This document shows, one piece after another, positions 28,937 to 47,930 of a stretch of DNA of 64,000 nt. The number at the start of each line of letters is the position of its first letter. Position 1 is the first letter of the stretch. Origin of the DNA: a virus. The stretch lies in the IMG/VR virus record IMGVR_UViG_3300045988_176357, positions 96,001 through 160,000 of that record, one strand, 5' to 3'. The translations under genes were made by a program, and so were the position numbers. Under the pieces are notes generated by a model. That model worked only from the letters and a program-made list of their open reading frames with translations, was not told the origin of the DNA and did no database searches.

Positions 28937-28972
28937 AGTAATTCAAGCATAAAACAGAAAGGAAAAACGAAA

Positions 28973-29960: not shown

Positions 29961-30364
29961 TCGTTATCAGTCGTCTTTATGTCTCCGGACTTCCTTTAGA
30001 TAAACTCGAGCAACTGGCAGATGAAATCAGCCACAAAGACTTCACAGACGGCTGTGTCTTCGCATGCTCTGTCCACAAGGATGCTGCTAGGATGTACATA
30101 GACACCTTTGAAGGCGTCGCTACCGACCAGATGGACGATGATCTCAACGAGATTGGCAGACTCGCGCTGAATTATGGTTGCCGCATTGCAGGCAAAATCT
30201 TCCAATTTGGTGAATTTGCAGTATGGTCCGGAAACTTCAATGATGTGAATGAGATCGAATGGGTTGACATGACTCTGTTCATGGAACTGCCCACACACGA
30301 GCTCAGAAAACTTGCAACATATGTAGGTGCCGACAATGTCGTACAAGCTCAACACAAATGTTAA
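29957..30364 (+). CDS. Hypothetical protein.
   Basis: ORF track; start overlaps the upstream stop. Confidence 0.55.
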   Translation: MIVISRLYVSGLPLDKLEQLADEISHKDFTDGCVFACSVHKDAARMYIDTFEGVATDQMDDDLNEIGRLALNYGCRIAGKIFQFGEFAVWSGNFNDVNEIEWVDMTLFMELPTHELRKLATYVGADNVVQAQHKC

Positions 30365-31136
30365 GCCGCTTACTGCTGCACAGGAAAAAGAGGCATTCGC
30401 AGACTTCCATTCCCAAGATACAAAGAAAAGCGAGGCTGCTGCCGACCTGCTGCTTTCCGCTAACTCAAAATTGATCTTTAAATTGGCGCAGGAATTCAAG
30501 CACCATCCCATTCCTTTCGACGATCTCATAGCCGAAGGTTGTGTAGGTCTTATGGTAGCGGCTGGGAAGTTCGACATCAACAGAGGAACACGCTTCATTA
30601 CATATGCAGCATGGTGGATAAAACAGCGGATGCGCAAAGCTGTGGAAACACAGAGCCGCACAGTGCGAGTACCTGCAAAGACACATGTGACCAAGTCCAG
30701 ACTCCTCAGGATGCAAGACCAGCTGAGAGACGAACTAGGTTACCAGCCGGACATCTATCAGCTGTCCGAGTACACGGGCATGCCTGAATCCAAGATCAAG
30801 ACGCTGCTGAACAGCCTTGGGCACGGTGTGTCTGTAGATGCGGAATCAGAAGACACTGAAATGTCCAACCTGGAGAAGGCACGTGTAGCCATTGCCGATG
30901 ATCTTGGTGACCTGCTGGACGACTCCGAGCTGCTGGACGAGATGCGCAAAGCTTTCAAGCGCCTTCCTAAACGTGACCAATTCGTGCTTGGTATCAGGTA
31001 TGGACTTGATGGCGGCGGCGTATCCACACTGGAGGAAGTCGCGCAGGAAGTCGGCAGGTGCAGAGAACGATGCAGACAACTTCAGGAAGAAGCCTTAAGG
31101 AAGCTTCGCAGAGAAATCAGAAAACGAACAAGTTGA
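30327..31136 (+). CDS. Sigma-70 family RNA polymerase sigma factor.
   Basis: Region 2 DLIAEGCVGLMVAAGKFDINRGTRFITYAAWWIKQRM matches sigma-70 region 2.1-2.4. A region 4 HTH follows (TLEEVAQEVGRCRERCRQLQEEALRKLR). Confidence 0.8.
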   Translation: MPTMSYKLNTNVKPLTAAQEKEAFADFHSQDTKKSEAAADLLLSANSKLIFKLAQEFKHHPIPFDDLIAEGCVGLMVAAGKFDINRGTRFITYAAWWIKQRMRKAVETQSRTVRVPAKTHVTKSRLLRMQDQLRDELGYQPDIYQLSEYTGMPESKIKTLLNSLGHGVSVDAESEDTEMSNLEKARVAIADDLGDLLDDSELLDEMRKAFKRLPKRDQFVLGIRYGLDGGGVSTLEEVAQEVGRCRERCRQLQEEALRKLRREIRKRTS

Positions 31137-32064: not shown

Positions 32065-32150
32065 AGCAAAAGGAAGCCCGTAGAGGGCCGCTAAAGGGGT
32101 CACCCCCTCTCGTTATGTAGGGTTACCCTCTAACAGAAGCCAGAGAGGTC
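32057..32150 (+). promoter_or_regulatory. About 90-nt structured repeat element, copy A, immediately upstream of ATG 32156.
   Basis: About 90% identical to 32757-32837. Two small hairpins (gcccgtagagggc; aggggtcacccct) and the palindrome agggttaccct, then GAGAGG and ATG. Confidence 0.5.
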
Positions 32151-32155
32151 TAAGA

Positions 32156-32386
32156 ATGCAAGGAACGGTCTTGGAGGAGGATATCGGAGCATGTAGAAGA
32201 CAGCAGTATGCTTGCCAGACACCACTGTCGATGGTTTCGGTACTGATTTTGACGAGATTGAGGATGCACTGGCTTAACAGTTACGACGTAACTGTTACTG
32301 ACATGTCGCTATTTTCAAGACACCAGAGGCAGCAGAATATCATAATCCATGCCGAAAGGCTGTTTCGTGGGTATCTTCCTCCTTAA
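32156..32386 (+). CDS. Small hypothetical protein.
   Basis: ORF track, preceded by the repeated element and a GAGAGG RBS. Confidence 0.4.
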   Translation: MQGTVLEEDIGACRRQQYACQTPLSMVSVLILTRLRMHWLNSYDVTVTDMSLFSRHQRQQNIIIHAERLFRGYLPP

Positions 32387-32756
32387 TGGTCCTCCTTCTC
32401 CTCCCCTTAAGGTTCCCTGCACCTTCCTAATCCCCTCTATAGTCTCCCCTTAATGCTCCATCTGCCATAAGGTACTTTTTTTATTAGTTTACCTAGTGTA
32501 CCTTGAAGAAGTACCGTAAGGTACTCTGAAAGGTACACAAGATGGACCTGTATATTAGGTATTATTTATTATGATACCCCTAAAGGGGTATCGTAATAAT
32601 ATAATACTGCGCACGCGCATAATGCGCGACGCATATACACGTATACGCAACACATGCTGCGTCCGGGCTGCGCCCTGTCTGGCATGTGGAGCAAGGATTT
32701 TGATTTTCCTTTGTGTGGCACCATATGTTGCCAGAATCCCATCAAACCTAAAAGAA
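32387..32756. other. Non-coding region with a CT-rich tract, five AAGGTAC-type direct repeats and perfect palindromes. Candidate origin or regulatory region.
   Basis: Pyrimidine tract 32395-32470; (a/g)aaggtac repeats 32468-32540; palindromes gataccccTAAAggggtatc, gcgcacgcgc and atgcgcgacgcat. Confidence 0.4.
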
Positions 32757-32837
32757 AGCCCGTAGAGGGCTCCCAAAGGGGTTACCCCCTCTCGTTGTGT
32801 AGGGTTACCCTCTAACAGAAGCCAGAGAGGCCTTAGA
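32757..32837 (+). promoter_or_regulatory. About 90-nt structured repeat element, copy B, upstream of the sbcD-like gene.
   Basis: Near-identical to 32057-32150; ends AGAGAGGCCTTAGA then ATG 32838. Confidence 0.5.
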
Positions 32838-33923
32838 ATGAAACGAAAGATATATCTTGTCAGTGACTGCCATGTGAAGTCACGATTATGGACCAACTTT
32901 GCTGCTGTGCAGGGCGACGCCTACATGGCAATGCGCAAGATGGCATCCGAAACCGACCCGTCAAGTGTGCTGATCTCCTGTGGAGATTTGCTCGACTCGA
33001 ACAGACCCTCCAATGTCGACCTTGCCGAGACAGCCGAATTCCTGAACCACTTTCACAGGGTGCTGTACATAGCTGGCAACCATGACGACTGTCAGCCGTC
33101 TATCGTGCCTGTGATGTGTCCTTATGCGTTGCATCTGACACCTGATGATGTCGTTCGTGAAGGCAATCTCGTCATCTGCGGCATTGACTGGCAGCGCAGC
33201 AGGGAAGCATTCCTTGAGTGCCTTGCTCAGGCTGCACAAACACTCAGTGACGAGACCAAAGATGGCGGTCAACCCGTATTGATCATGCACCAGGCTGTGC
33301 ACGATTTCCTGTCCATCGACGGCGCCAGCATGTGCACAGCAAAGGAAATCCTGGATACCGTAGGACAGGACGTCCTTGTGTACTCAGGCGACATCCATGT
33401 TGTGCAGCATGTCGCTTCCAGCCTTGGCAAAGGCAGAGTACAGTCTCCAGGTCCGCTCGTCCCTCAGGACACTTTGCAGGCCCGTAGACAGCAGGTTTAC
33501 TGGGAACTCGACAGTGACACCGGGGTACCCACCCGGCACCCCGTCAGCGTGCGTTCTTTTGCGTTTCTTGACAGTGCCGCTCCCGACTTCGACCTTGCAG
33601 CGTCTCTGGATGCTCTTGACAGAAGCCTTGAGCTGCCGCCTGTTGCGATACTGCAGGTGCACGGTGACTATGTGCCGCCTAAAAGTCAGCTCAACAGAGA
33701 GGACTGCATTGTAGTTGTCCGTACGGAACGGACTTCGACAGAAGTAAGAACTGCAGATGAGTCCAGTGTAACTACACTGGAGGAAGCCATAGCTCAGGAA
33801 ATTGAAGCTACCGAACCGCTGCTTGCTGACGTGTTGAAGCCGTTGGTGGACAGGCTGACAACTGCGGATAAACCTGACGAGCTTCTATCGACATTGCTTA
33901 CGAATTGGGAGGTGACCACATGA
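32838..33923 (+). CDS. sbcD: SbcD/Mre11-like metallophosphoesterase nuclease.
   Basis: Phosphoesterase motifs LVSDCHV, GDLLD and GNHDD. Overlaps the SbcC-like gene, as in sbcDC operons. Confidence 0.7.
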   Translation: MKRKIYLVSDCHVKSRLWTNFAAVQGDAYMAMRKMASETDPSSVLISCGDLLDSNRPSNVDLAETAEFLNHFHRVLYIAGNHDDCQPSIVPVMCPYALHLTPDDVVREGNLVICGIDWQRSREAFLECLAQAAQTLSDETKDGGQPVLIMHQAVHDFLSIDGASMCTAKEILDTVGQDVLVYSGDIHVVQHVASSLGKGRVQSPGPLVPQDTLQARRQQVYWELDSDTGVPTRHPVSVRSFAFLDSAAPDFDLAASLDALDRSLELPPVAILQVHGDYVPPKSQLNREDCIVVVRTERTSTEVRTADESSVTTLEEAIAQEIEATEPLLADVLKPLVDRLTTADKPDELLSTLLTNWEVTT

Positions 33924-34166
33924 TACAAGTCAAACACATGGATCTGTTTCATTTCTGCCGGTTCGACAAGCTGTCGCTTGATGTACAGCCAGGTCTAACC
34001 AGAATAGCAGGTCCCAATGGCTCAGGTAAGACGACGGTCTTCAGAGCCCTGATCTACGGTCTGACCGGTTGGTGTGATCCGACATGGGGCACACAAAGCG
34101 ACCTGCAGCAGGACGATGAAAGCGTTCCAGGCTATGTCGAACTGACACTGTCGGTAGACGGCGAGG
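33905..34166 (+). CDS. sbcC: SbcC/Rad50-like ATPase, exon 1 (Walker A GPNGSGKTT). Interrupted by IStron copy 1; the apparent TAA at 34169 lies in the shared element sequence.
   Basis: The N-terminal ABC/SMC head and the C-terminal half at 35832..37514 are each incomplete alone. They fuse in frame when the element is removed. Confidence 0.6.
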
Positions 34167-35835
34167 CTTAACAACCTCCATTGAGGAGTGATCCTCATTG
34201 CAAAGAAAGTGAATTGCTAATAGATCCCAAGAGCCTCACGATGCCTGTAACAAGGATCGAAAGAGAAAACAAAGAAGTGAGGATACCGCAAGGCGACAGT
34301 AAGCCTAAACGGGAGTGACAACGGACGTTTAGCAGCCGAGCCTTGTATCGAGAGATACCCGGTACAAGGAAGGTTCATCGACTAGGACATCGTGTCCGTA
34401 CCCGAGCAGCCGTGTGCGTGATAACGCACGAAAGCAAGGGGAAGTACTCTGGCTCAGGAATGAGTCAATGAAATAGTCAGTGCTTCATGGAAACATGAAG
34501 AGTGGTCAGGAGTGACAACCTGAAACCTGCTACTGGGCGGCAACCGGTAGTGAACAGAACCATGGACTTCAATTGTATTGTTATTTCGTCAAGTTTTATT
34601 TACCGTTTTGATCTTTACAGAACGGAGTTATAATACTCTCAGTAACTGGAGAACACTTTGGAACCAAGAGCACACATAATCAGATTGTACCCGACAAGGG
34701 CACAGGAGAAGCAGCTGAAGAATACCATCGGCTGCGCTCGTTATGCGTACAATTGGGCTCTCGAGAAGTGGCGGGAGATGTATGCCGCACATGATAAGGA
34801 CAAGGCTTCTCCAAAGCCAAGTGCCTTGAAGCTGACCAAGTTATGGACTCAGGAGAAGCCTGACTGGGCACATGAGACAGCTTATTGCAGCCAGCAAAGA
34901 GCGATACATAACGTAGGCGTCGCTTATCAGCGCCTTTAGAGGGGCTTATCGGCGAAGCCGAAGTTCCATAAGAAGGGCGGCAAGGAGACGTTTTACGTTG
35001 ATAATGCGAAGGTCGCATGGTACGGCAATAGAATCCAGTTGCCCGACATCGGACGTGTCCGCGTAGCGGAGCAGATCCGTTTCGAGGGCAAGGTAATGGG
35101 CTACACAGTGTCCCATTATGCCGGACAGTGGCATCTCATAGCTCAGGTCAACGCCGAAGGCGACGTGAAACCTTACTGCGCCGATCCCGAGTCCGTCGTC
35201 GGTATCGACGTAGGACTTCTGAATCCGGCTGTAGCCTCCGATGGAACCGTCTTGCAGCTCCCCATAGAGAAGCTCCAAAAGCTTGACGCCAAGCTCAGGC
35301 GGCAGCAGAAGGCACTCTCCAGAAGTCAGCGCAACTCCAGAAACCACGCGAAGCTTCTCGTAAAGAAGCAGCGTACGCAGAATAAGATCAACAACATCCG
35401 AAAGGATGCAGTACATAAGTTCACGACCACCATTGCCAAGAGCCACGGCAAGGTAGTCATCGAAGATCTGGACATCCAAGGAATGAAGGATAAAGCTCCT
35501 TCAAGAGCCGTCAGAAGGGCGCATAACAGTTCCCTCATGGGCGCCATCCATCGGCAGCTCTCCTACAAAGTCCAGCACCTGATCAAGGTGAATCGCTTCT
35601 TCCCGTCTTCCAAGACCTGCAGCAACTGCGGGCACATAAGGAGCGCCCTTGATTTAAGTGAACGTACATATCATTGCGACCACTGCGGAGCGGTCATCGA
35701 CCGCGACCTCAATGCCGCAATCAACTTGATGAAATCAGGGCTGGTCAAGCCCGAAGCGTCTGTGGAGCAAGTCGGTACCGACTTGCGTTGAAGCAGAAAG
35801 TACAAACGGACGCAACGTCCGTAAGTTCATGACAG
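34167..35835 (+). mobile_element. IStron copy 1: structured 5' group-I-intron-like RNA module (about 34167-34650) plus IS605-family tnpB, inserted in the sbcC-like gene. Boundaries are within a few nt.
   Basis: Shares about 370 nt of structured 5' sequence, including the R-like GGTTCATCGACTAGGAC core, and a common 3' end ccgtaagttcatgacag with copy 2. The host gene reading frame is restored on excision. Confidence 0.65.
34658..35791 (+). CDS. tnpB: TnpB (IS605 OrfB family RuvC-like nuclease) inside IStron copy 1. ATG lost; TTG start tentative.
   Basis: RLYPTRAQ N-terminal HTH; RuvC-I GIDVGL, RuvC-II IEDLD, CxxC..CxxC zinc finger, RuvC-III DRDLNAAINL. 83% identical to the protein at 43225..44340. 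Confidence 0.8.
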
Positions 35836-37514
35836 AATACGTCCTGAAGAGGTTTGCAGGGACTGGTACGAAGCTGGTCGACACATTATGTAAAGACGAT
35901 GCAATAATTGTTAAGAATCGTCAAAAAATAAATGCATGGTTAGAGCAGTTCACAGGCATCTCTATGCCGGTAATGGCACAGTTGATGTGGTTGCGACAGG
36001 AAAACTCATCTTGGCTGCTGACGGCTACAGCTGCTCAGATCAACCAGTTCCTCGGTCTCATTTTCGACACCAAAAAGCTTGAGACCTACAGACAGCATCT
36101 GAAGAATGCCTGTGACAGCATACCGAAGCTGCGCGATGACTTTGACACAAGAAGGAAGCAAGCTGCAGAGACATTGCACCAGCAGTCCTCGCAGAAGGAG
36201 CTGCTGTCACAACAGCTGCAGGAACAGCAGGCACTTGTACAGGCTACACGGGAAACGCTGCAGGCATTTGGTAACAGCATGTCTGTAGCCGACCGTGACA
36301 AGATGCTGCGTCTGTGCGAACAGGAACTGGCAGTCTACAACAGAGACCTCGACAAGTATAGGGATCTGCAGGAAGCTCCTGTCGTGGATATTGAAACCGA
36401 GACAGCAGCTGAGACTGCATTGGTCTCCAAAATATCTGCACAGCGGCTTGAAAAGTCAACTTGTGAGCGGATGCTGAACAGTGCCCGTGCCGATAGAGAC
36501 AACAGCAAGTGGAGGCTTGATCAGCTGCGTCATATACATACGCCTGACACCTGTGAACTATGTGGTTGCAACCTCAGTACCAGTCCGGAAACGTACCGTA
36601 ACAACAAAGTAAAACTGTTACTGCAGCAGTCTTTAAGCTACGAAGAGGCCATCAGAACCTTTTCTGAGACCTACGAAACCAGTGCACATAAATGCATTGA
36701 ACTGGAAAAGCGTATGGCCCTGCTTGAACATGCTATTGCTTCAGATAATAAAGTGCTGGAATCAATCGGACAGAAACGTGCTGAAAGACTCCGGTACATG
36801 GAACAGCTGCAGCATAAAACAGAGCTTCAACACAAGATTGAACAGGTGACTGCTGAAATCGAAAAGCTCAAGGCAACACCTGTGTACGATGCGTCTATAT
36901 CGAAGCAGCAGATTGAAAGCATGCTTCGCAGTGCCGAAGCCAGAGAGACGGAACTGAAATCCGCATATGAGACCTGTATTGCTTCTATTGCGTCTGCACA
37001 ACAGATAATACATGATGCAGAAGAAGATGCTGTCAGGTATAAACGTAACGAACGTGTGCGCCAGGTTCTGTCGACTTTGCGTGATGTTTTGTCACAAAGC
37101 AGAGCACAGGCAAGATACCTTAACAGCAAGATATCTGCCTTGAATGGCAATATAGCTCACTATCTGCAACTGTCCGAGATGCCTTTCACAGTCTTCCTCG
37201 ACCCTGCAGAGCATGTTTTCAAGTACAGGATGGATGATTGTGATGTGCAGCATCAGGCAGGCATGCTGTCTGGTGCACAAAAGGCTGCCGCCGCAATTGC
37301 AATACAGATGTCGCTCGTTGTTACGGCAGTGCCGGATCTGACATTGCTTCTGCTGGATGAAGCGGATGCTTCGTTGTCACCGGAGAACAAAGTAATTGCT
37401 ACCAAGCTTTACAGGGTCCTTGCAGAGACGCTCAGTGGAAGCGATGGCAGCACATTCGTCATAAGTCAGTCAGACACTGTTGCTGCAGAATGTGACAGAG
37501 AAATAACACTATAA
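35832..37514 (+). CDS. sbcC: SbcC/Rad50-like ATPase, exon 2: coiled coil, ABC signature LSGAQK, Walker B LLLLDEAD.
   Basis: Continues exon 1 in frame if 34167..35835 (or 34169..35831) is spliced out, giving the junction VDGE(E/AT)YVLKRF. Coiled-coil-rich middle section. Confidence 0.6.
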   Translation, partial: TEYVLKRFAGTGTKLVDTLCKDDAIIVKNRQKINAWLEQFTGISMPVMAQLMWLRQENSSWLLTATAAQINQFLGLIFDTKKLETYRQHLKNACDSIPKLRDDFDTRRKQAAETLHQQSSQKELLSQQLQEQQALVQATRETLQAFGNSMSVADRDKMLRLCEQELAVYNRDLDKYRDLQEAPVVDIETETAAETALVSKISAQRLEKSTCERMLNSARADRDNSKWRLDQLRHIHTPDTCELCGCNLSTSPETYRNNKVKLLLQQSLSYEEAIRTFSETYETSAHKCIELEKRMALLEHAIASDNKVLESIGQKRAERLRYMEQLQHKTELQHKIEQVTAEIEKLKATPVYDASISKQQIESMLRSAEARETELKSAYETCIASIASAQQIIHDAEEDAVRYKRNERVRQVLSTLRDVLSQSRAQARYLNSKISALNGNIAHYLQLSEMPFTVFLDPAEHVFKYRMDDCDVQHQAGMLSGAQKAAAAIAIQMSLVVTAVPDLTLLLLDEADASLSPENKVIATKLYRVLAETLSGSDGSTFVISQSDTVAAECDREITL

Positions 37515-37524
37515 GGAGAACAGG

Positions 37525-38565
37525 ATGAAGTACAAGAAAGGTGAGTTCGGTTACTGGTGGACAGTAATTAAGGGTAATAAGGATATAGAAGGCAAAGTGT
37601 ATGTAGGTATTATATCTTGTCGTCGCTCTAGCTTGGTATCTCTTAAAGGCGCACCAAAAGAGGTTGGCGGTAGTTTTTATTGCTCTGGCAACGCTCTGAC
37701 ATCACTTGAAGGCGCACCAAAAAAAGTTGGCGGTAATTTTGACTGTTCATATAACAAGTTGACATCTCTTAAAGGCGCGCCAAAAGAGGTTGGCGGTGGT
37801 TTTGACTGTTCGTGCAACAAATTGACATCTCTTAAAGGCGCACCAAAAGAGGTTGGCGATGGTTTTGACTGTTCATACAACAAGTTGACATCTCTTAAAG
37901 GCGCACCGAAAAAAGTTAGTGGTTATTTTTATTGCTACAACAACGCTCTGACAACACTTGAAGGCGCACCAAAAGAGATTGGCGATGGTTTTGACTGTTC
38001 ATACAACAAGTTGACAACACTTAAAGGCGCACCAAAAGAGGTTGGTAGTTGTTTTTATTGTTCCGGCAATCCACAACTCAAAGAGCTCCTAGATAAGATG
38101 CCTACACAAGCTATATGTGGAGACGTGTATAAGTGGTGTGGAAAGATCTGGAGCTTCTTCGACGGCGTGCAGAAAGAGGTAGCAACGATACGCAAATCCG
38201 GCAGCATTACGGTGTACAAGATGAAAGACGGCACCTATGCTATGCACGACGGAGAGGCGTACGCGCATGGCAAAACACTCAAGGAAGCCAAAGCGGATCT
38301 CATCTATAAGCGCACATCAAGGGATCTCAGTGAATACAAGAAGTTCACCATGGATTCCAAGCTGCCGCTTGAGGAGTGCATCAAGATGTACCGCTCGATA
38401 ACAGGAGCGTGTTCTCTGGGCACAAAGGAGTTCTGCTCGAAGAGGAAGCTCAAGAAGGCGTACACTGTTGGGGAAGTCATTGAGATCACAGATGGTGCGT
38501 ATGGGAATGACAAACTTAAGGAGTTCTTTAAAGAAGGCAAATGTCTACAACAGATGAAACCGTGA
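37525..38565 (+). CDS. BspA-like leucine-rich-repeat protein with seven 21-aa repeats (LTSLKGAPKEVGGxFDCSYNK) plus a C-terminal domain.
   Basis: AAGGAGAA RBS. Repeat periodicity is visible in the translation. The N-terminus MKYKKGEFGYWWT is shared with 41601. Confidence 0.6.
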   Translation: MKYKKGEFGYWWTVIKGNKDIEGKVYVGIISCRRSSLVSLKGAPKEVGGSFYCSGNALTSLEGAPKKVGGNFDCSYNKLTSLKGAPKEVGGGFDCSCNKLTSLKGAPKEVGDGFDCSYNKLTSLKGAPKKVSGYFYCYNNALTTLEGAPKEIGDGFDCSYNKLTTLKGAPKEVGSCFYCSGNPQLKELLDKMPTQAICGDVYKWCGKIWSFFDGVQKEVATIRKSGSITVYKMKDGTYAMHDGEAYAHGKTLKEAKADLIYKRTSRDLSEYKKFTMDSKLPLEECIKMYRSITGACSLGTKEFCSKRKLKKAYTVGEVIEITDGAYGNDKLKEFFKEGKCLQQMKP

Positions 38566-38673
38566 AAGCGATGAAAGAAGCTCTGGAAGGTGACCCTAAA
38601 GAACTGTTCAGTGCTCTGGCACACATTATGGTGCAATTCTTCAACAGAGAACTGGTAAACTAAGGAGAACGGA

Positions 38674-39423
38674 ATGAAAGTGACAGAACTTGAAAGAAAA
38701 GAAGTTTGTACGCAAGTAAAGTATGCGTGGAATAAGAAGGTATTTGAGCTTGACGACTGCCCTGACTGGGCTCAGTACGCAGCTGTTGACAAGGATGGAA
38801 CCGCATTCTGGTGCAGTAACGAGCCAGATCTGTGTTCCTTCGGCTGGCTAACCTCTCTGAAAGACAAATATAAGTCCATATGTGACGCTGATAAGCGTCC
38901 GCTTCTGTTCAAGACAGATGGCTGGGTCTACAGTCTGATAAAGAGACCAAAGTCTGCACACAAGAACGTATCGGCACACTTGTGCAGAGACAGCAAAGGC
39001 AGGTTTGTCAGCAGGGTCAAAGACGCCACACCCGATCTGCCTCAAACCCAGTATCAGACAACAGAAGGCCACTATGCCTATGGCAGATGCAAATTGCTCG
39101 AATTCTCCGCACGTGAGCTCAGCGATGAGTATGGTAATGCAATGCTGCAACTGAAACTGCTGCTGAAGAACAAAAAGGGCGTTGTAGAGCTGGTCATAGA
39201 TGTGCGTCCTGTCAGTAAGGAAAAAGGCGCACTGCGTTATTTTGTAGTGCAATCAGGGCTTGAGCATGCACTCTTCAGTGCTTTGTTGCATAAAGACAAA
39301 GAGATCGACGCGGACTTATCTGCGATATGTCCTGTACTTTATATATACAGTAATACTGACATACGTGAAATCAGGTTTCCAGCAGCATCATGCTGGAGAA
39401 TCGAGCGTGAAATTGCACTGTAA
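38674..39423 (+). CDS. Member of the CPDWAQYAAVD paralog family.
   Basis: ELDDCPDWAQYAAVDKDGTAFW motif; AAGGAGAA RBS. Confidence 0.6.
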   Translation: MKVTELERKEVCTQVKYAWNKKVFELDDCPDWAQYAAVDKDGTAFWCSNEPDLCSFGWLTSLKDKYKSICDADKRPLLFKTDGWVYSLIKRPKSAHKNVSAHLCRDSKGRFVSRVKDATPDLPQTQYQTTEGHYAYGRCKLLEFSARELSDEYGNAMLQLKLLLKNKKGVVELVIDVRPVSKEKGALRYFVVQSGLEHALFSALLHKDKEIDADLSAICPVLYIYSNTDIREIRFPAASCWRIEREIAL

Positions 39424-39434
39424 CAGAAAGGAGC

Positions 39435-40139
39435 GTGAAAATGAAAGTAACAGATCTCGATACAAAAGACGTCATAGTAACACGTACAGAAAAACGGTAC
39501 GTACTTAATGAGAAAGTGTTCGAACTTGATGACTGTCCTGACTGGGCTCAGTACGCAGCTGTTGATGAGTGTGGGACTGCGTACTGGCACGAGAACAAGC
39601 CATGTCATATGTTGCACCAATGGTTTCACAGATCAGATAGCAGGTATAAGGCTATTGCTGATTACAGCTTTGATACCACCGACTGGCAGCACAGTCTTAT
39701 CGAGCGACCCAAGAAGGTACTCGAGGTCACTATGGCTGACCTGGAGAAGAAATATGGGTGCAAAGTCAAGCTTGTAAAGGGCTACGATACGCAAGAAAAG
39801 ATAGATGTTACATCTGACGCTGTAGCTGAGACCAGCAGTAACTTAAGTACAGATGTTTACAAGTTGGATACGCAAGTGTTCCTGCTTAACCAGTGTCCGT
39901 CTTGGGCTAAGTGGGCTGCTGTGGATCATGACGGTATTGCAAGCTGGTACAACACTAAGCCAGTTCTCAGCTCAGACAAAAGATGGCAATTGCCGAAAGG
40001 CGTTTTAGGGTGCTGTATGCCAATTGAACGTGTCGGTACTGGACAATACATGCGCTTCGATGCATCGTCTTACTATGATAGTGTAGTGGAAAAGAAAGCG
40101 TGTTTGAGTCCATACAAAGCACGTAAATCCAATGCCTGA
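39435..40139 (+). CDS. Member of the CPDWAQYAAVD paralog family, with two motif copies plus a VTMADLEKKYGCKVKLVKG module.
   Basis: Motifs at residues about 30-50 and about 150-170. Confidence 0.6.
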   Translation: MKMKVTDLDTKDVIVTRTEKRYVLNEKVFELDDCPDWAQYAAVDECGTAYWHENKPCHMLHQWFHRSDSRYKAIADYSFDTTDWQHSLIERPKKVLEVTMADLEKKYGCKVKLVKGYDTQEKIDVTSDAVAETSSNLSTDVYKLDTQVFLLNQCPSWAKWAAVDHDGIASWYNTKPVLSSDKRWQLPKGVLGCCMPIERVGTGQYMRFDASSYYDSVVEKKACLSPYKARKSNA

Positions 40140-41649
40140 CAGCCTGACTATAAAGCTCAGCTATACTGTATGCTCGTGTACCCCGTGGCCTGTGAGCTTG
40201 CGGGATACAGCTCGTTTCACAATGCGTGAGCCAAAGACGCCGGAAGAACTTCGAGCAGAACGAGACGCCATTAAGCGTGCAGGCAGCACAGGCAAACCGA
40301 AGCCCTACAAGTTTACAAGTCACAGCTGCGTTGAAACAAGGAGTGGCTCAGGCTACTTCCTTATAGGCTTTTGGCCGCACCTCAAAGCAGAACTCGAAAA
40401 GCGCAATATACCTTACAGTGTAGACGACCAGCGAGATCGTTCACTCAGACCTGATCCTGATTATAGCTGCCTGTCGGGTATACAGTTCCGAGAAGGACAG
40501 GCAGAAGCATTGGCAAGTATCATATCAAGTGATGGCGGTCTGTTGTGCTCCAATGTTTCGTTCGGTAAAAGCTTCCTTATTAAGGTGCTCTGTCAATTAT
40601 ATCCTACATTGAACATACTTGTCGTATGCAATGCGGGCGAAGTCGTACGGGAGCTGTACAGAGCCATCTCTGAGGTGCTTCCCGGTCAGGTTGGCCTGCT
40701 GGATATGAAACACAGCGAGATCAATGGCAAACGCATCATCGTTACCACAACGAAGTCCATGACGAAAGTCAAACCGGAACAGGTACAGCTGATGCTCGTG
40801 GATGAATGTCATTGCGCTGGGTACAACGAGACAGGATTCCAAATCCAGCAGTTCTGCTTCTGCAGACGATTCGGATTCACAGCAACCCCGATCAGAAACC
40901 AAGGCGATCATCTGTACTTTGAATCGTTATTTGGGCCTGTGCTGCAGCAGCAGACATTTGAGCAGTCTGTAGCGGCAGGTTCGGTAACTCCGATTGAGTA
41001 CACTATGGTACCGATTGAGAAAAAGCTGACATATCTTGACGACATAAAGCAGCTGCCGAATGCAATTCAGTACCGACTGATGTATACCAACAACCCTGTA
41101 AGGAACAGACTTATTGCAGGTGTGTTCAACGATATCAGACAGGCGAATCCTGATGCACAGATACTTATCATGACTCAGACTATCGAGCACTTGATACGCC
41201 TATGTGAACTTATTCCGGGTTTGCATTTCGCACACGGTGAAAGAGGCGATCTCAGTTCATATAAGCGCAAGAAGGGGCTCGAGAATGTCGACATGTTCAA
41301 GTACAGACAGTCAGCTGAGCAACTGTCGTACGTGAAAAAACAGGCCGAGCTTGGTGAGTATAAGTCGCTTATAGCTACAGGCGTCTGGTCAAAGGGCATC
41401 AACCTGCACCACTTATCCGTACTTATAAGAGCGGATGGTGCTGTATCCGGGATACCGTCTGTGCAGATACCTGGACGACTTGCGCGGCTTGACGATGGAA
41501 AGGAAATTGCGTTTCTTGTGGACTTTTCGGACGAGTTCTGTGAGTCTGCAGGTAACAGAGCAGTAGCCAGAACCAGGCATTACAACAAGGAAGGATATGC
41601 GTGCGTATCTTATATAGATATGCTGCAGGAAATAAGAAGGACAAAATGA
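40132..41649 (+). CDS. Superfamily-2 DNA helicase (DEAH-like). Alternative start 40222.
   Basis: Motif I GKS, motif II VDECH, motif III FTATP, motif VI PGRLARLDDG. Confidence 0.6.
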   Translation: MPDSLTIKLSYTVCSCTPWPVSLRDTARFTMREPKTPEELRAERDAIKRAGSTGKPKPYKFTSHSCVETRSGSGYFLIGFWPHLKAELEKRNIPYSVDDQRDRSLRPDPDYSCLSGIQFREGQAEALASIISSDGGLLCSNVSFGKSFLIKVLCQLYPTLNILVVCNAGEVVRELYRAISEVLPGQVGLLDMKHSEINGKRIIVTTTKSMTKVKPEQVQLMLVDECHCAGYNETGFQIQQFCFCRRFGFTATPIRNQGDHLYFESLFGPVLQQQTFEQSVAAGSVTPIEYTMVPIEKKLTYLDDIKQLPNAIQYRLMYTNNPVRNRLIAGVFNDIRQANPDAQILIMTQTIEHLIRLCELIPGLHFAHGERGDLSSYKRKKGLENVDMFKYRQSAEQLSYVKKQAELGEYKSLIATGVWSKGINLHHLSVLIRADGAVSGIPSVQIPGRLARLDDGKEIAFLVDFSDEFCESAGNRAVARTRHYNKEGYACVSYIDMLQEIRRTK

Positions 41650-42729
41650 AGTACAAGAAAGGTGAATTCGGTTACTGGTGGACCAGGAAAAATGAGGATA
41701 TTGAAGGCGGAGAGTATGAGGGCTCCATATGTTGTCCTGAAAATCTTACGTCTTTAAGAGGAGCACCACGAATAGTGACAGGTGAATTCTTTTGTCACCG
41801 TTGCCGTATCACAACACTGAGAGGAGCGCCTGAGAAAGTAGGCGGAAATTTTAGCTGTGTTGAAACGAAGCTGACAGATCTGAAAGGAGCTCCTAAAGAA
41901 GTCGGCGGTAACTTCTACTGTGACATGTGCGGGCTGATATCTCTGGAAGGAGGTCCTCGCAGGATAGGAGGAAGCTTTTACTGCGATAACAACAAGCTCA
42001 CTTCGTTAGAGGGCGGTCCCACTGAGATTTTCGGTGACTACAGATGCAGCTATAACGAGCTTAAAAATTTGTTAGGCGCACCAGAAGTTATTCCTGGCGA
42101 TTTCATCTGCAGTGAAACCACTCTTAATTCACTGGAGGGCTGTCCAAAAGTAGTGAAGGGCTCATTGATCCTGGACTATAATTCGCTCATATCCTTGGAG
42201 CATTGCGCTAAAAGTGTAGGAGGGGACTTCAATGTAAACTTCAATGGGCTTAAGTCGTTGTTAGGCGGGCCCGTATCTGTAGGAGGATCCTATAAGTGCG
42301 TGAACAATGATCTGCGTACTCTTTTTGGTTGTCCGTCAGTCATAAACGGAGACTTTGAGTGCGCAGGCAATGCACTGAATGATCTTGCCTCCTGTCCAAG
42401 TAAAGTAACAGGTAATTTTGATTGCTGTAGTAATCATCTGGTTACCTTGGAAGGAGGTCCCACAGAGGTAGGCGGCGACTATGACTGCTCCGTCAATAAT
42501 CTACAGACGCTTAAAGGAGCTCCATCGTGTGCTAACGGTGATTTTGATTGCAGCTTCAATGAATTGACAAGTCTTGAAGGCTCTCCTGATGTGGTGGCTG
42601 GAGAATTCGTCTGTCATAATAACAAATTGGAGTCTTTGGTCGGAGGACCTAGCGTAGTGTCCGCTCACTATTGCTGTTCGTACAATAACTTGAAGTCCCT
42701 GAGAGGGATTGCTCATAAAATCGGTGGAG
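41601..42729 (+). CDS. BspA-like LRR protein, exon 1 (16 or more 21-aa repeats). Interrupted by IStron copy 2.
   Basis: Repeat pattern GxPxxVGGxFxCxxNxLxSL. The apparent stop lies in sequence shared with the copy 1 insertion site. Confidence 0.55.
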
Positions 42730-44405
42730 CTTAACAACTCCCTTTAACCAGTGATGGTTATTGAACAAGAAAGTGAATTGCTAATAGATCCCAAGAGCCT
42801 CACGACGCCAATAAAATGGATCGAAAGAGAAAACAAAGAAGTGAGGATACCGCAAGGCGACAATAAGCCTAAACGGGAGTGACAACGGACGTTTAGCAGC
42901 CGAGCCATGCGTTCGACAGAACGCCAGCGCATGGAAGGTTCATCGACTAGGACATTGTGTCCGTACCCGAGCAGCCATGTGCGTGATAACGCACGAAAGC
43001 AAGGGGAAGTACTCTTGGTTGGGAACAACCAAATGAAATAGTCAGTGCTTCATGGAAACATGAAGAGCGGTTAGGAGTGACAACCTGAAACCTGCTACTG
43101 GGTGGCAACCGGTAGTGAACAGAACCATGGACTTCAATTGTACTTTAATTTCATCAAGAACATTTAACGTTTTGATCTTTACAGATACGGTGTATAATAC
43201 ACCTAAACTGAAGGTGTAAATTTCATGATCAGAACAAACGTCATAAGATTGTACCCGACAAGGGCACAGGAAGCGCAGCTGAATAACACAGCTGGCGCTT
43301 GTCGTTTCGCATGGAATAAAGCCCTCAGTTACTGGGATGAGCAATATGAAGCTCATCTTAAGGATAAATCCATTCCGTTACCGATTTCTTCCAAAGTAGC
43401 AAGCTGGTATAAAGACAACCGCGAAGAATGGGCGTCCGAAACATCTTCTGTCTGTCAGCGCCAGGAAATACTTCACCTTGGCAAAGCCTTCCACAGCTAC
43501 TTTAGACGTCCGGACCATTTCGCACATTCGAAGTTCCACAAGAAGGGAATTAAGGACTCATTCGAGGTTCCGAATGACAAGGCGAAAATCAAAGACGGCA
43601 GACTTTCATTGCCGAAGATAGGCGAAGTCAAAATGGCTGAGCCGCTTCGCTACCAAGGCAAGATATGCAGCTACACAGTAAAGAAGTCAGGCGGCAACTG
43701 GTATGTTCACATACCTGTGGAAACAGGTAAGGACGAGAGAGTTCGTTGCATCAATCCAGAGTCCGTCGTCGGTATCGACGTAGGACTTCTGAATCCGGCT
43801 GTAGCCAGCGACGGCACCAAGCTGGAGCTCCCAAAGGAAACCTTGGACAAGCTCGACGCCAAACTCAGGCGACAGCAAAAGGCACTCTCCCGTTCACAAA
43901 GGAACTCCAGAAACCATGCCAAGCTTCTTCTCAAGAAGCAGCGTACTCAAAATAAGATCAACAACATCCGAAAGGATGCAGTACACAAGTTCACGACCGC
44001 CATTGCCAAGAGCCACGGCAAGGTAGTCATTGAGGATCTGGATATAAAAGAGATGAAGGCCAAGGCCCCCGCACGTTCAGTGCGTCGCGCCTACAACAGC
44101 TCCCTCATGGGCGCCATTCGCTGGCAGCTCTCTTACAAAGTCCAGCACCTGATCAAGGTGAATCGTTTCTTCCCGTCTTCCAAGACCTGCAGCAACTGCG
44201 GGCACATAAAGGGCGACCTCACCGTAGGTGAACGTACATATCATTGCGACCACTGCGGAGCGGTCATCGACCGCGACCTCAACGCCGCAATCAACTTGAT
44301 GAAAGCAGGGCTGGTCAAGCCCGAAGTGTCTGTGGAGTAAGCTGGTACCAGCTTACGTTGAATCAGAAAGTACAGACGGACGCAATGTCCGTAAGTTCAT
44401 GACAG
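42730..44405 (+). mobile_element. IStron copy 2: group-I-intron-like module plus tnpB inserted in the LRR-protein gene. Boundaries are within a few nt.
   Basis: Starts with the same cttaacaac...gaacaagaaagtgaattgct sequence and ends with the same ccgtaagttcatgacag as copy 1. Excision fuses ...KIGG(D/AT)IYCADNELP, continuing the repeat. Confidence 0.65.
43225..44340 (+). CDS. tnpB: TnpB (IS605 OrfB family) inside IStron copy 2. Intact, with ATG start and TTGATC-17-TATAAT promoter upstream.
   Basis: Same motifs as copy 1. Promoter-like ttgatctttacagatacggtgtataat at about 43170-43197. Confidence 0.85.
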   Translation: MIRTNVIRLYPTRAQEAQLNNTAGACRFAWNKALSYWDEQYEAHLKDKSIPLPISSKVASWYKDNREEWASETSSVCQRQEILHLGKAFHSYFRRPDHFAHSKFHKKGIKDSFEVPNDKAKIKDGRLSLPKIGEVKMAEPLRYQGKICSYTVKKSGGNWYVHIPVETGKDERVRCINPESVVGIDVGLLNPAVASDGTKLELPKETLDKLDAKLRRQQKALSRSQRNSRNHAKLLLKKQRTQNKINNIRKDAVHKFTTAIAKSHGKVVIEDLDIKEMKAKAPARSVRRAYNSSLMGAIRWQLSYKVQHLIKVNRFFPSSKTCSNCGHIKGDLTVGERTYHCDHCGAVIDRDLNAAINLMKAGLVKPEVSVE

Positions 44406-44506
44406 ACATATATTGCGCCGATAATGAGCTGCCTGTTGCTGACAGCAAAAGAGCAAGATACGCTTTCGAAGCCAAGGATAATCTGCTGGAGGTATGTGGT
44501 GGCTTA
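44406..44506 (+). CDS. LRR protein exon 2: short C-terminal continuation IYCADNELPVADSK...EVCGGL.
   Basis: In frame with exon 1 after element removal, and matches the repeat consensus IGGxFYC.NxL. Confidence 0.45.
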
Positions 44507-44619
44507 TAACAAGAACGTCGAGTATTTGTACTCCGTCGTATTTCCTTCGTTTAGTTCCAGCAAGGCGGTGCATGATGAGCTGGTGCACAGACACAGGAAA
44601 GAGACGGAAAAGGTGGGAT

Positions 44620-45066: not shown

Positions 45067-45352
45067 CGACTATATAGAGTTCGACACAGGTGATACGTTG
45101 CGTTCGTATCACATGCCTGCATGCTGTGAAGACAACTACGCTGCATTTAAGGAGGTCGATGATCTTGCTCTTGAGGCCGACTTCGATCAGCCTCTGATGT
45201 TTGAGGCTGTATTTGGCGGGTTTCGTTTCGGCAACGAAGGCAAGATGTTCTTTGTTCCTTGCTATTCAGAGCAGAACGGATACTACACAAACGAGGTCGA
45301 TATCGAGCTCAATGGGAGTCGGGTGCTCAGCTGCGAAGGTACGCTTATCTGA
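45044..45352 (+). CDS. Hypothetical protein.
   Basis: ORF-track frame; second Met preceded by AAGGGG. Confidence 0.4.
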   Translation: MRIKKVTDDYIEFDTGDTLRSYHMPACCEDNYAAFKEVDDLALEADFDQPLMFEAVFGGFRFGNEGKMFFVPCYSEQNGYYTNEVDIELNGSRVLSCEGTLI

Positions 45353-45467
45353 TGTCAGATGTGAAACATGTAAAAGTAAACAAGGACAGAAAGAGGGGAC
45401 TTAAGATGCCTAAGAAAGCGGCAGGCTTACATAGTCAACAATAAGGAGCACAAGAAAGGAGAACAAA

Positions 45468-45818
45468 ATGAAAATAACAGACCTCGACACAAAAAATGTA
45501 CAGGTAACACGTACAGAAAAACGGTACATATTGAACGATAAGGTCTTCCAGCTTGACTGCTGCCCTGACTGGGCTCAGTATGCAGCTGTGGATGAGGATG
45601 GACATGCTTACTGGTACGAGTATAAACCGAACCAATATTCTGCCAGTTGGAGAAATACGGCACCTCGTTTAGTGTCGCACATACATACTGACACACTTTT
45701 CGATGCCACCGACTGGTGGAATAGCCTTATCAGGCGCCCACAGAAGGTACTTGAGGTTACTATGGCAGACCTGGAGAAGAAGTTTGGATGTAAAGTGAAA
45801 ATTGTAAAGGATATTTGA
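45468..45818 (+). CDS. CPDWAQYAAVD-family small protein with the C-terminal VTMADLEKKFGCKVKIVK module.
   Basis: Motif LDCCPDWAQYAAVDEDGHAYW; AAGGAGAACAAA RBS. Confidence 0.6.
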   Translation: MKITDLDTKNVQVTRTEKRYILNDKVFQLDCCPDWAQYAAVDEDGHAYWYEYKPNQYSASWRNTAPRLVSHIHTDTLFDATDWWNSLIRRPQKVLEVTMADLEKKFGCKVKIVKDI

Positions 45819-46557: not shown

Positions 46558-46935
46558 ATGCAGAAGAGAGACAGTAAAGGAAGATTCATGAAAGCTGATA
46601 AGGCATATGGCAGAGGCTGCAAGCGCAATCACGACACTTGTAAGTGCAACAAGCCCGCTGACAGTGTCAAGGACGAAGGTCCGCAGCTCCCTGTCGACTG
46701 CTCAAATATGAGTGATGACGAGCTTGAACAATTCATCAAATCGCTTGTAGCAGAACTCGCCAATGCAGTCTATATCCCAGGCAAAACCATGACCATCGAT
46801 GTTACCATCGAGGATAACGACGAAGCTGCTTGTACAGGTGACGATGCTGACGCAGATGACGACAAAGGTCACAGTGATAACTTCATGGATTCCTTCAGAG
46901 CCTTCTTGAAGGAGCGTGGAGTGGCACTTGATTAA
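46558..46935 (+). CDS. Hypothetical protein with a Cys/His cluster and an acidic C-terminus.
   Basis: ORF track. Confidence 0.5.
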   Translation: MQKRDSKGRFMKADKAYGRGCKRNHDTCKCNKPADSVKDEGPQLPVDCSNMSDDELEQFIKSLVAELANAVYIPGKTMTIDVTIEDNDEAACTGDDADADDDKGHSDNFMDSFRAFLKERGVALD

Positions 46936-47731
46936 GGCGGCAGCTGCCGGTTTCCTGATAAGCATTGGTTGCAAAGTGGCCGTTATGGAAGGATCGTTCT
47001 TAGGGGCGATCCTTTTTTCTTTGGCCCTGTTGTGTATCATTCACTACAAGTTGCCTTTGTTTACAGGAAAGGTCGGTTACAGGACGCCTGTGACGATACT
47101 CGTGGTCGTACTTGTGTTCAACATGATTGGCGCATTCTCCGGCAGCCTGTTGTTCGATGCCCAGCTGTCTGCTGTAAATCTGTATCAGAGATGCAACGCG
47201 CCCTGGTACAAGGTATTGTGCAACGGTATAGGTTGCGGAGTGCTCATGTTCATCGCAGTGGATTACGGTAAGCGCAACCCGTTGATTGTTATCATGGCGA
47301 TCACCACGTTTATACTGTGCGGTTTTGAGCACTGTATTGCAGACATGTCTTACATAGCTACGAAAGTCGATACATATTGGGCATTCTTGTTGCTTGTTAT
47401 TGCAGGCAACGCAATAGGCGGCAAGCTTGCGTACTATTTAACAGGAGCACATAATGACAGAACGAGAATTGCGGCTCCGACTGAAGCGTCTCCTGGGTAC
47501 GGACAGGGGACTGCCGGTCGAGAAGCTCGCTGCAGAACTGACGACACACAAGGTGGACATTTTTCCGTACATGACATGGCTGTGGAAAACGCAGGGACAG
47601 AAGTTTCGAGTGCTGCTGACAAAGAAAGTGGCGGACTACGCAAAAGCAGCGGAAAAGGAAAAACAGAGCCTTCCGCAGCTGATCGTAAATGCTGGCACAA
47701 TTTTCTTGCATCTCTCAGAAGGCTCGCTTGA
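46916..47731 (+). CDS. Integral membrane protein with about 6 TM segments. The 3' extent is uncertain; the last 280 nt overlap 47454..47930 in another frame.
   Basis: Hydrophobic segments through residue about 175; the LCGFEHCIADM motif is noted. The tail of the ORF is probably fortuitous read-through in GC-rich sequence. Confidence 0.35.
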   Translation: MEWHLIKAAAAGFLISIGCKVAVMEGSFLGAILFSLALLCIIHYKLPLFTGKVGYRTPVTILVVVLVFNMIGAFSGSLLFDAQLSAVNLYQRCNAPWYKVLCNGIGCGVLMFIAVDYGKRNPLIVIMAITTFILCGFEHCIADMSYIATKVDTYWAFLLLVIAGNAIGGKLAYYLTGAHNDRTRIAAPTEASPGYGQGTAGREARCRTDDTQGGHFSVHDMAVENAGTEVSSAADKESGGLRKSSGKGKTEPSAADRKCWHNFLASLRRLA

Positions 47732-47930
47732 ATCCGACAGGACAATTGAGATACTAGGCGACATGTGTGAACCTTATGCACTGTACTTCTTGTTTGCAGG
47801 CGTAGGATTGCCTTGCGACAAGTACCGTGCAGCTGCCAAGGAATACGCAGCCATGTTTCCGGATGCAGTACGTGCTCTGCCTGAACCATATAAGAAACTT
47901 GGAGAGGCACTGACACATGATACCACTTGA
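47454..47930 (+). CDS. Hypothetical protein.
   Basis: ORF track; plausible globular composition. Confidence 0.5.
   Translation: MTERELRLRLKRLLGTDRGLPVEKLAAELTTHKVDIFPYMTWLWKTQGQKFRVLLTKKVADYAKAAEKEKQSLPQLIVNAGTIFLHLSEGSLESDRTIEILGDMCEPYALYFLFAGVGLPCDKYRAAAKEYAAMFPDAVRALPEPYKKLGEALTHDTT

Follow-up and report, generated by a model that had tools for sequence, protein, structure and literature searches.

An uncultured gut phage carries two insertions that are best explained as IStrons, single DNA units in which a group I intron is combined with an insertion sequence encoding only TnpB. Both lie in a 64,000-nucleotide stretch of DNA, positions 96,001 to 160,000 of the IMG/VR record IMGVR_UViG_3300045988_176357, which was analysed as a whole and is referred to here as the window. 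The intron part appears to be IA2-like, and the elements resemble the group B (IS607-like) IStrons with a target that ends in G; the probability of this reading is put at about 80%. Copy 1 (34167..35835, plus strand, 1669 nt) interrupts a gene for an SbcC-like ATPase, and copy 2 (42730..44405, plus strand, 1676 nt) interrupts a gene for a leucine-rich repeat (LRR) protein. Alignment of the copies with each other and with empty sites places the ends of copy 1 to within 1 nt (G), and the empty site in the related phage contig L002 places those of copy 2 to within 2 nt (AG). The copies are direct repeats with a common start, CTTAACAAC, and a common end, CCGTAAGTTCATGACAG, and alignment bears out the boundaries proposed in a preliminary description of this DNA. 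In both, a 5' group I ribozyme region of about 480 nt is followed by tnpB and then by a guide-RNA-like 3' end, so that each joins a 5' group I intron and a 3' insertion sequence-type open reading frame (ORF) in one mobile unit, the combination that defines an IStron. The ribozyme at the 5' end, the full-length TnpB, and the conserved 3' scaffold ending at the element boundary together support the IStron interpretation.

The two copies are not near-identical, as had been stated at first. Their column identity in pairwise alignment averages 86% with a mosaic pattern: values of about 83-95% hold for the 5' RNA, for tnpB in its C-terminal half, and for the 3' end, but tnpB has diverged far more in its N-terminal half, and the two TnpB proteins share 66% identity. 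Profile and BLAST searches of the window found exactly three ribozyme copies, at 34167, 42730, and 63773, with nhmmer E-values of 1.7e-52 for copy 1 and 1.8e-54 for copy 2. A pattern scan of metagenome contigs brought the distinct insertion sites of this element type to 20, several of them on human-gut contigs, and at these sites the 1.67-kb unit recurs with identical ends. The 17-mer GGTTCATCGACTAGGAC is found in both copies and, searched as a pattern with up to three mismatches, gives 4 matches against a chance expectation of 0.14. Loci L005 and L007-L018, which share the exact 17-mer, show no wider similarity to the elements, L006 being the exception.

Uninterrupted versions of both host genes are present in related phages. 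Exon 1 of the SbcC-like gene (33920..34166, plus strand) contains Walker A and matches Pfam AAA_23 (E=9e-11; also as an AAA_23/SMC_N fragment), and exon 2 (35836..37514, plus strand), with the coiled coil, signature motif, and Walker B, matches the C-terminal part of SMC_N, in agreement with the division of the gene first described. In viral contigs L019 and L020 this gene is a single colinear frame of 641 amino acids with 95-96% identity, and its junction reads GTAGACGGCGAGG/AATACGTCCTGAAG (GGCGAGG/AATACG, encoding VDGEEYVLKRF; a slash marks the junction here and below). The empty sites themselves read GACGGCGAGG/AATACGTCC in both contigs. The LRR protein is likewise uninterrupted in L002, where it has 395 amino acids, aligns at 96% identity with no gap, and reads ...AHKIGGDIYCADNEL... 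across the junction GGTGGAG/ACATAT (KIGGDIYC). Its exon 1 in the window (41646..42729, plus strand) encodes a 21-residue repeat, ..G.P..V.G.F.C..N.L.SL.., and is 96% identical to L002, and exon 2 (44406..44509, plus strand; 34 codons and a stop) is identical to L002, with the GGxFxC register kept across the junction. The DNA of L002 aligns to the window up to 42729 and resumes at 44404 with 94-98% identity, the element being absent, and the vacant alleles in L019 and L002 equal the window over 30 nt past the junction. Since the empty-site alleles in L019, L020, and L002 match exon 1 joined to exon 2, the elements are precise insertions without target duplication. The apparent ends of the upstream ORFs are TAA codons inside the shared element sequence (34169-34171 and 42732-42734), as previously noted, and neither the SbcC nor the LRR homologues end at these positions; in-frame rejoining of both hosts is therefore confirmed by natural alleles.

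Selection on the interrupted gene appears to persist. Compared with the uninterrupted homologues, dN/dS is 0.02-0.05 for SbcC exon 1 and 0.06-0.09 for exon 2, and neither exon contains an internal stop; by this measure, both exons are under purifying selection. Just upstream of the SbcC-like gene lies a gene for a calcineurin-like (Metallophos) phosphoesterase, as expected of an SbcD partner. In contig L115 (OLNE01000071.1, at about 130), the same LRR gene is interrupted at another GGAG (..GGPVSVG/G..) by a variant with a CUUCC guide, and the GG of the LRR repeat is a recurrent target, in copy 2 and in L115.

The RNA at the 5' end of both elements has the features of a group I ribozyme. Its core spans 34167..34565 in copy 1 and 42730..43130 in copy 2, both on the plus strand, and comprises P1-P9 with peripheral helices; because P7.1 and P7.2 are present, the core is classed as IA2-like, the subgroup reported for known IStrons (10.1101/2023.11.20.567912; PMC4227781). 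In permissive mode, the Rfam model RF00028 (Intron_gpI) is the top match for all three copies in the window (E=2.4e-4 to 0.009), scoring 26.9 bits for copy 1 (E=2.4e-4, at 34168-34500), 21.6 bits for copy 2 (E=0.009), and 22.3 bits for copy 3. The gathering threshold of this model is 50 bits, and, given these sub-threshold scores, relatives were collected from viral contigs and covariation was counted. For 25 aligned relatives, 40 pairs in P2, P3, P4, P7, P7.1, P8, and P9 were scored on a structure drawn up manually from copy 2 and the Rfam alignment, with P5 left out for its poor alignment. Paired cells amount to 91.5%, compared with 30-47% when the partners are slid, and in 27 of the 40 pairs both sides have changed in a compensatory way. 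The true partners have a covariation score of 0.58, the slid ones 0.07-0.12, and the observed values were reached by none of 500 shuffles.

The pattern of these changes agrees with the group I architecture. Pairing is complete (100%) in both P3 and P7, which cross each other as in the group I pseudoknot. P7 occurs in four compensated versions (GACUA with UAGUC, GAUCA with UGAUC, GGUCA with UGACC, and GACCA with UGGUC), and its pair at alignment columns 318 and 434 is G-C in all 25 sequences, which could be the guanosine-binding site. P2, P8, and P9 are hairpins, mostly with GNRA caps and many compensatory variants, and copies 1 and 2 differ by compensatory changes in P6 and P6a. A fold of copy 2 from energy alone recovers P1, P2, P4, P6, P7.1, P7.2, P8, and P9, with a minimum free energy (MFE) z of -3.9. 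Copy 2 is supported in this way by Rfam, covariation, folding, and nhmmer alike. The group I-like RNA of about 480 nt first proposed is detectable as a fold, with RF00028 as its best match; its Rfam score is below the cutoff, but covariation over the relatives is strong. On these grounds, the conserved RNA is a predicted group I ribozyme, its core kept by covariation.

The start of each element pairs with the end of its upstream exon. In copy 1, the candidate P1 (34163..34178, plus strand) consists of exon GAGG (34163-34166), the loop CUUAACAA (34167-34174), and the internal guide CCUC (34175-34178); in copy 2 (42726..42741, plus strand), it consists of exon GGAG (42726-42729), the same loop (42730-42737), and the guide CUCC (42738-42741), a hairpin that both the MFE and centroid folds recover. 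Exon positions -4 to -1 pair with element positions +9 to +12 at all 20 independent sites: GAGG with CCUC at 11, GGAG with CUCC at six, GAAG with CUUC at two, and GGAG with CUUC, through one G.U pair, at one. Exon position -5 is free across these sites. This four-base-pair match is recognizable as P1, and the DNA boundary lies at the top of that helix. In distant relatives, P1 is canonical and includes a U.G pair, for example GGAU/C..GGUCC and GUAU/CGAUGC..GCGUAGGUAC, and all end in TGA(A)CAG, the family-wide terminus; copies 1 and 2 also end in G, at 35835 and 44405. By homology to these relatives, we infer a 5' splice site directly after the four paired exon bases (after 34166 in copy 1) and take the terminal G of ACAG as omega-G. 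Group I introns in general seldom have a G at position -1. Such a G is nevertheless the documented state of group B (IS607-type) IStrons, whose targets do not end in U (PMC4227781), and in CboIStron the spliced junction equals the DNA donor joint while the G-rich target-adjacent motif (TAM) pairs for recognition of the 5' splice site (10.1101/2023.11.20.567912).

The preliminary description had offered two pairs of splice sites as equally frame-consistent. Both are indeed in frame, but the ancestral genes favour the homology boundary: the uninterrupted homologues carry exactly that junction, so the DNA boundary is placed at 34167..35835, and every LRR repeat has three residues between GG and C, which agrees with it, as do the P1 helix and the TGA(A)CAG terminus of the family. 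Under the other choice, the same elements would splice after U34168 and U42731 and after the G of CAUG at 35831 and 44401, leaving CU and ACAG in the mRNA and adding Ala-Thr; the copy 1 junction would then read GAGGCU/ACAGAAUACG. This restores the usual U at -1, ends the intron in G, and stays in frame in both hosts, and mutant CboIStrons do use alternative G-ending 3' splice sites within 10 nt of the native one (PMC13521648). However, the two extra residues are absent from the uninterrupted homologues, GGATDIYC would break the LRR register, and U(-1) would lie opposite A beside a C-A mismatch rather than opposite G. The relatives with canonical U.G would also splice right after the four paired exon bases, with the intron ending at the last G of ACAG, and splicing of the wild-type CboIStron is scarless (10.1101/2023.11.20.567912; PMC13521648). 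The shifted splice sites are accordingly judged improbable.

The third related group I intron (63773..64000, plus strand) is located in a gene for a family A DNA polymerase and is truncated where the window ends. It has a canonical P1, GGU/C..GGCC, and its complete homologue, intron A of contig L061, is without an ORF. Its 5' sequence was at first taken as exon (..SGRFG), a reading rejected by the complete intron in L061, which puts the splice site after AGCGGU with a canonical U.G. The intron interrupts the TGR motif of the polymerase (SGR in this phage; relative region L061:3184-6130). The L061 polymerase gene has at least four such introns, one of which, in motif A (DYSF/AELV), holds a GIY-YIG-like ORF with many in-frame TAGs.

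Downstream of the ribozyme, both elements encode a TnpB. The copy 1 gene (34658..35791, plus strand) has a TTG start and 377 codons with one in-frame TAG at 34937-34939, and the copy 2 gene (43225..44340, plus strand) encodes 371 amino acids with no internal stop. Both proteins match the three Pfam domains OrfB_IS605, Cas12f1-like_TNB, and HTH_OrfB_IS605, and TnpB of copy 2 matches ISDra2 TnpB (PDB 8exa) over its full length with E=4.4e-39. Aligned to ISDra2 TnpB, both copies retain the RuvC residues D, E, and D in GIDVG, VIEDL, and IDRD and the zinc finger CSNCG..CDHCG. The claim of an intact tnpB with all motifs consequently holds for the motifs of both copies, but copy 1, with its in-frame TAG, is not intact under the standard code; a frameshifted copy 1 gene was considered and rejected, as the gene keeps one frame throughout, with a single TAG. 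Copies of tnpB at different sites give dN/dS of 0.14-0.19. A nucleotide search of a phage collection with the element gave no match, and protein searches of phage and plasmid collections gave TnpB matches of up to about 36% identity.

The 3' end of the elements resembles the omega RNA layout described for IStrons. A guide-RNA-like (omega RNA) scaffold with the predicted 3' splice-site region covers 35690..35835 in copy 1 (plus strand), ending ...CAUGACAG with 35835 as the presumed omega-G, and 44260..44405 in copy 2 (plus strand), from which the presumed guide would continue into 44406-44425. The corresponding guide segment of copy 1, suggested by TnpB biology (10.1101/2023.11.20.567912), would be the start of SbcC exon 2 (35836..35855, plus strand). 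The last 140 nt or so contain the motifs CUGUGGAG, GUUGAAGCAGRAAG, and TGA(A)CAG, with two stem-loops between them that covary family-wide. This scaffold stops exactly at the element boundary, and the 3' region of copy 2 folds with z=-3.4. Because the vacant alleles in L019 and L002 are identical over 30 nt, an exon-guided TnpB would have real targets in related phages. The presumed TAM flanks are GAGG, GGAG, and GAAG, with GRRG as their common denominator. At L002:2937-4203, a 1.27-kb TnpB-only element was also found, with a TnpB 50% identical to that of copy 2 and an internal TGA; it ends in the same ...GATCATGACAG and takes the place of about 340 nt (window 45082-45423), and no group I intron is detectable upstream of it.

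The TAG in copy 1 tnpB has to be seen against the coding of the whole phage. Late, structural-looking genes at 962-25326 (plus strand) and 27116-28942 (minus strand) have TAG at about 4.3% of their in-frame codons (37 of 846 in one example), and the ORFs in window 1-29000 are tightly packed only if TAG is a sense codon; by this pattern, the genome is stop-codon-recoded, with TAG predicted to be sense in late genes. From about 35.8 kb to 64 kb, the genes have no in-frame TAG except that of copy 1 tnpB. The same tnpB allele, CTT TAG AGG, also occurs at two other sites (L006 copy b and L097), making at least three, and sister copies read CTC CGG AGG at this position. After the TAG, dN/dS of tnpB is 0.17 compared with 0.19 for the TAG-free subtype, values to be read with the visible gene conversion between subtypes in mind. 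As the phage reads TAG as sense in late genes, copy 1 tnpB is probably not dead and is probably translatable when suppression is active.

The identity of the inserted amino acid was approached through two further genomes used for late-gene comparison, L117 (IMGVR_UViG_3300045988_177579), a close relative, and L118 (IMGVR_UViG_3300045988_174965). Between the phage and L117, TAG and CAG exchange at 4.7%, which compares with 3-6.5% for synonymous C-T exchange and is about 40 times the non-synonymous first-position C-T rate (1 in 845), and no exchange between TAG and GAG was seen. TAG is therefore most likely read as Gln. A Glu assignment, considered on the basis of Glu depletion and the L118 alignment, was rejected because TAG exchanges with CAG at the synonymous rate and with GAG not at all. 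The Glu pattern itself is marked: Glu codons make up 1.4% of 12 late genes versus 6.6% of early genes, with Asp normal, and at 81-84 TAG positions compared with standard-code homologues the partner is Glu in 38-40% and Gln in about 2%. Either most GAG codons have been replaced by TAG (read as Gln), or TAG is decoded in a less simple way than as Gln; one speculative cause would be the indirect Gln pathway, by which a suppressor tRNA could come to carry Glu. Scans of the window and 11 related loci found no suppressor tRNA and no tRNA of any kind. A literature search found no paper that describes IStrons in stop-codon-recoded phages.

Several observations weigh against the IStron reading or parts of it. 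The Rfam scores of the three copies are well under the gathering threshold, at which a search of the whole window returned nothing, and splicing and the exact splice sites are deduced from sequence. Copies 1 and 2 do not have the canonical U.G at the 5' splice site, which is present in copy 3 and the distant relatives, but G(-1)-C at the junction of helix and loop. The presumed TAM differs between the copies, and the recombinants L102 and L112 pair either type of TnpB with either type of guide. Decaying copies occur elsewhere: tnpB of L103 has a TGA or TAA stop, and that of L102 has TAG where other copies have Glu and Trp. The proposed internal tnpB promoter (in copy 1, TTGATC, 15 nt, TATAAT at 34608..34634, plus strand, as read from the sequence) misses the standard spacing and receives no support from a sigma-70 scan; both boxes noted in the preliminary description are present, but the 15-nt spacing, found in both copies, explains why the scan does not call it. 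Finally, Pfam searches of 37 window ORFs found no transposase, resolvase, or Y1 transposase, and in none of the copies or about 25 relatives is there an ORF or spare room for TnpA between the ribozyme and tnpB.

The elements could be dead insertions whose ribozyme no longer splices, the SbcC-like and LRR genes being pseudogenes or expressed as fragments; splicing is deduced, the Rfam scores are sub-threshold, and an ATG at 35829 could start a fragment of 561 amino acids. This is highly improbable. Many compensatory changes preserve the pairing of the ribozyme helices, the exon fits the guide at every one of the 20 sites, the SbcC exons have dN/dS below 0.1 with no internal stops, and the same element family is found in essential genes, such as that for DNA polymerase. 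A different family affiliation is also very unlikely, namely to group A (IS200/IS605-type) IStrons, which a Y1 TnpA would move as single-stranded DNA. The Pfam match to OrfB_IS605, the IS605-family ISDra2 TnpB as best solved homologue, and a hairpin near each end would fit it, but the flanks end in GRRG and not in a T-rich pentanucleotide such as TTGAT, and no Y1 TnpA or fragment was found. Moreover, the left hairpin (P2) varies freely by compensatory changes and is unrelated to the hairpin at the right end, unlike the palindromes bound by TnpA.

Taking the elements as group B-like IStrons, their route to new sites can be considered in light of the targets GAGG, GGAG, and GAAG, which end in G and show no target-site duplication, only 1-2 nt of joint ambiguity. 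Switching of the TAM, with the target tetramer, the internal guide, and the N-terminal half of TnpB covarying, was rejected by L102 (a CCUCC guide with a copy 2-type TnpB) and L112 (a CUCCC guide with a copy 1-type TnpB). As the type of TnpB is uncoupled from that of the guide, TAM recognition would be either loose or not what selects the site. In the absence of such coupling, the match between exon and guide may result from insertion by a trans-acting recombinase followed by selection for splicing, or from RNA-guided site choice. The former, tentatively proposed as a possible route, would involve an IS607-type serine recombinase (TnpA) of the bacterial host or of another element, with non-splicing insertions lost from a gene-dense phage. 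Targets that end in G with no duplication are consistent with it, and so is the AG at both the left flank and the right end of copy 2, which a 2-nt crossover would produce. Group B IStrons, which are IS607-like, frequently have no ORF A (PMC4227781), CboTnpA works in trans on mini-elements (10.1101/2023.11.20.567912), and several of the best plasmid TnpB matches adjoin IS607 transposases. Conversely, no TnpA was found in the window or about 25 relatives, and in copy 1 the left flank (GG) differs from the right end (AG). The target of CboTnpA is strictly GG, whereas nine of the 20 sites here end in AG, and AT-rich terminal inverted repeats are not evident by eye, CTTAACAAC... and the reverse complement of ...TTCATGACAG sharing little beyond CT in this visual comparison.

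The latter would require no transposase: the excised intron would reverse-splice into a transcript or single-stranded DNA matching its four-nucleotide internal guide, and the product would be fixed by reverse transcription or recombination. Perfect covariation of target and guide in three variants over the 20 sites with -5 free, the uncoupling of TnpB type from target type, and the family-wide absence of TnpA would all follow from this scheme. Selection for splicing explains the same covariation, however, and no reverse transcriptase was seen; we know of no demonstration that IStrons move by reverse splicing. RNA-guided insertion is thus considered unlikely.

For the group B-like IStron interpretation, a life cycle can be proposed. 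The host gene would be transcribed through the element, and the ribozyme would cut 3' of exon G(-1) and 3' of the last G in ...GACAG, joining the exons without a scar. Splicing would restore VDGE/EYVLKRF and KIGG/DIYC through the RNA junctions GAGG/AAUACG and GGAG/ACAUAU. The tnpB mRNA and omega RNA would come from unspliced transcripts or from transcripts with internal starts, and the first 16-20 nt or so of exon 2 would serve as the guide. Splicing and guide-RNA formation would compete, since the 3' splice site lies between scaffold and guide. In CboIStron, the TnpB nuclease represses splicing. With its omega RNA, TnpB would cut intron-less alleles, GAGG/AATACGTCC... and GGAG/ACATATATT..., and such alleles do exist in related phages (L019, L020, and L002). 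Repair from an occupied copy would then spread or retain the element, amounting to homing during co-infection. TnpB of copy 1 would need read-through of one TAG and may be made only with TAG suppression active.

The closest known counterparts are the group B (IS607-family) IStrons BcISt1, CbISt1-4, and CboIStron of Clostridium botulinum and phages c-st and D-1873, with a 5' IA2-type ribozyme and a 3' TnpB (PMC4227781; 10.1101/2023.11.20.567912). The elements described here share with them a target that ends in G, no target duplication, a splice junction predicted to coincide with the DNA boundary, a guide-RNA-like scaffold overlapping the 3' splice site, frequent loss of TnpA, and residence in phage genomes; IStrons have been recorded in C. 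botulinum phages before (PMC4227781). They differ in having a GRRG target with three retargeted variants, instead of TGGG with a strict GG, in the absence of TnpA from every family member, and in a P1 that is a bare four-base-pair helix with an 8-nt loop. Their host also differs, being an uncultured gut phage that reads TAG as sense, with one tnpB containing such a TAG. The group A IStron CdISt1 of Clostridioides difficile is likewise a chimera of intron and TnpB, with an IA2 ribozyme related to the Twort intron. Its TTGAT target, the U at -1, the subterminal palindromes for a Y1 transposase, and the tnpA remnants, however, are not seen here.

Similarities also extend to phage group I introns with homing endonuclease genes (T4 td, nrdB, and sunY; Twort orf142), which are IA2-type, lie in phage DNA-metabolism genes, and self-splice, as is predicted here. 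The T4 and Twort introns spread by cutting intron-less alleles during co-infection, and the sister polymerase intron in L061 carries a GIY-YIG-like ORF. In contrast to these introns, the nuclease here is an RNA-guided TnpB encoded after P9 rather than in a peripheral loop, and its guide would be the flanking exon. The ISDra2 TnpB-omega RNA complex (PDB 8exa, 8h1j) shares full-length homology (E=4e-39), the RuvC D, E, and D residues, the zinc finger, and a 3' RNA scaffold, predicted here, that overlaps the gene end, but ISDra2, unlike the elements here, has a TTGAT TAM and a Y1 TnpA partner and is without an intron.

Several other features of the window were recorded. An 832-residue helicase/ATPase-like ORF (47917-50415) contains an intein with Hom_end_hint and LAGLIDADG domains (residues 213-497), another selfish element. 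In the region at 32-33 kb, a 98-nt direct repeat with 90% identity lies upstream of genes (32068-32165 and 32750-32847). Tandem repeats of 63 nt (37570-38069) within the ORF at 37525-38565 may belong to another LRR-type protein that, like the split gene, starts with MKYKKGEFGYWW, and paralogous segments (38662-39601 and 45465-45810) are common to genes at 38.7-39.8 kb and 45.4-45.8 kb. The window also encodes a phage sigma-70 family factor with regions 2, 3, and 4 (30327-31136), a formate/nitrite-transporter-like ORF (46916-47731), and two proteins with DUF7666 and pentapeptide repeats (52672-53943 and 56700-57677).

Since IStrons are known and the conflict between splicing and guide-RNA formation has already been dissected, these elements add members to the group rather than a new principle. 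For annotation, they mean that the seemingly truncated SbcC and LRR genes in this phage would be intact split genes. About 25 family members on viral contigs of 40-280 kb make up a large phage-borne family, and the 20 independent sites, together with three retargeted guides and empty alleles, make the site choice of IStrons without TnpA directly testable. In this family, TnpB appears to fill the role of the homing endonucleases of classical phage introns. There is also a link to recoding, as the TAG-bearing tnpB allele is present at no fewer than three sites in phages that read TAG as sense. A bolder and rather doubtful extension is that the family may have dropped its transposase altogether, with the four-nucleotide guide picking GRRG sites, through reverse splicing or strict selection for splicing, and TnpB acting as a homing endonuclease between co-infecting phages. 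In some copies, translation of tnpB would then be gated by TAG suppression, so that the nuclease would be made only late in infection.

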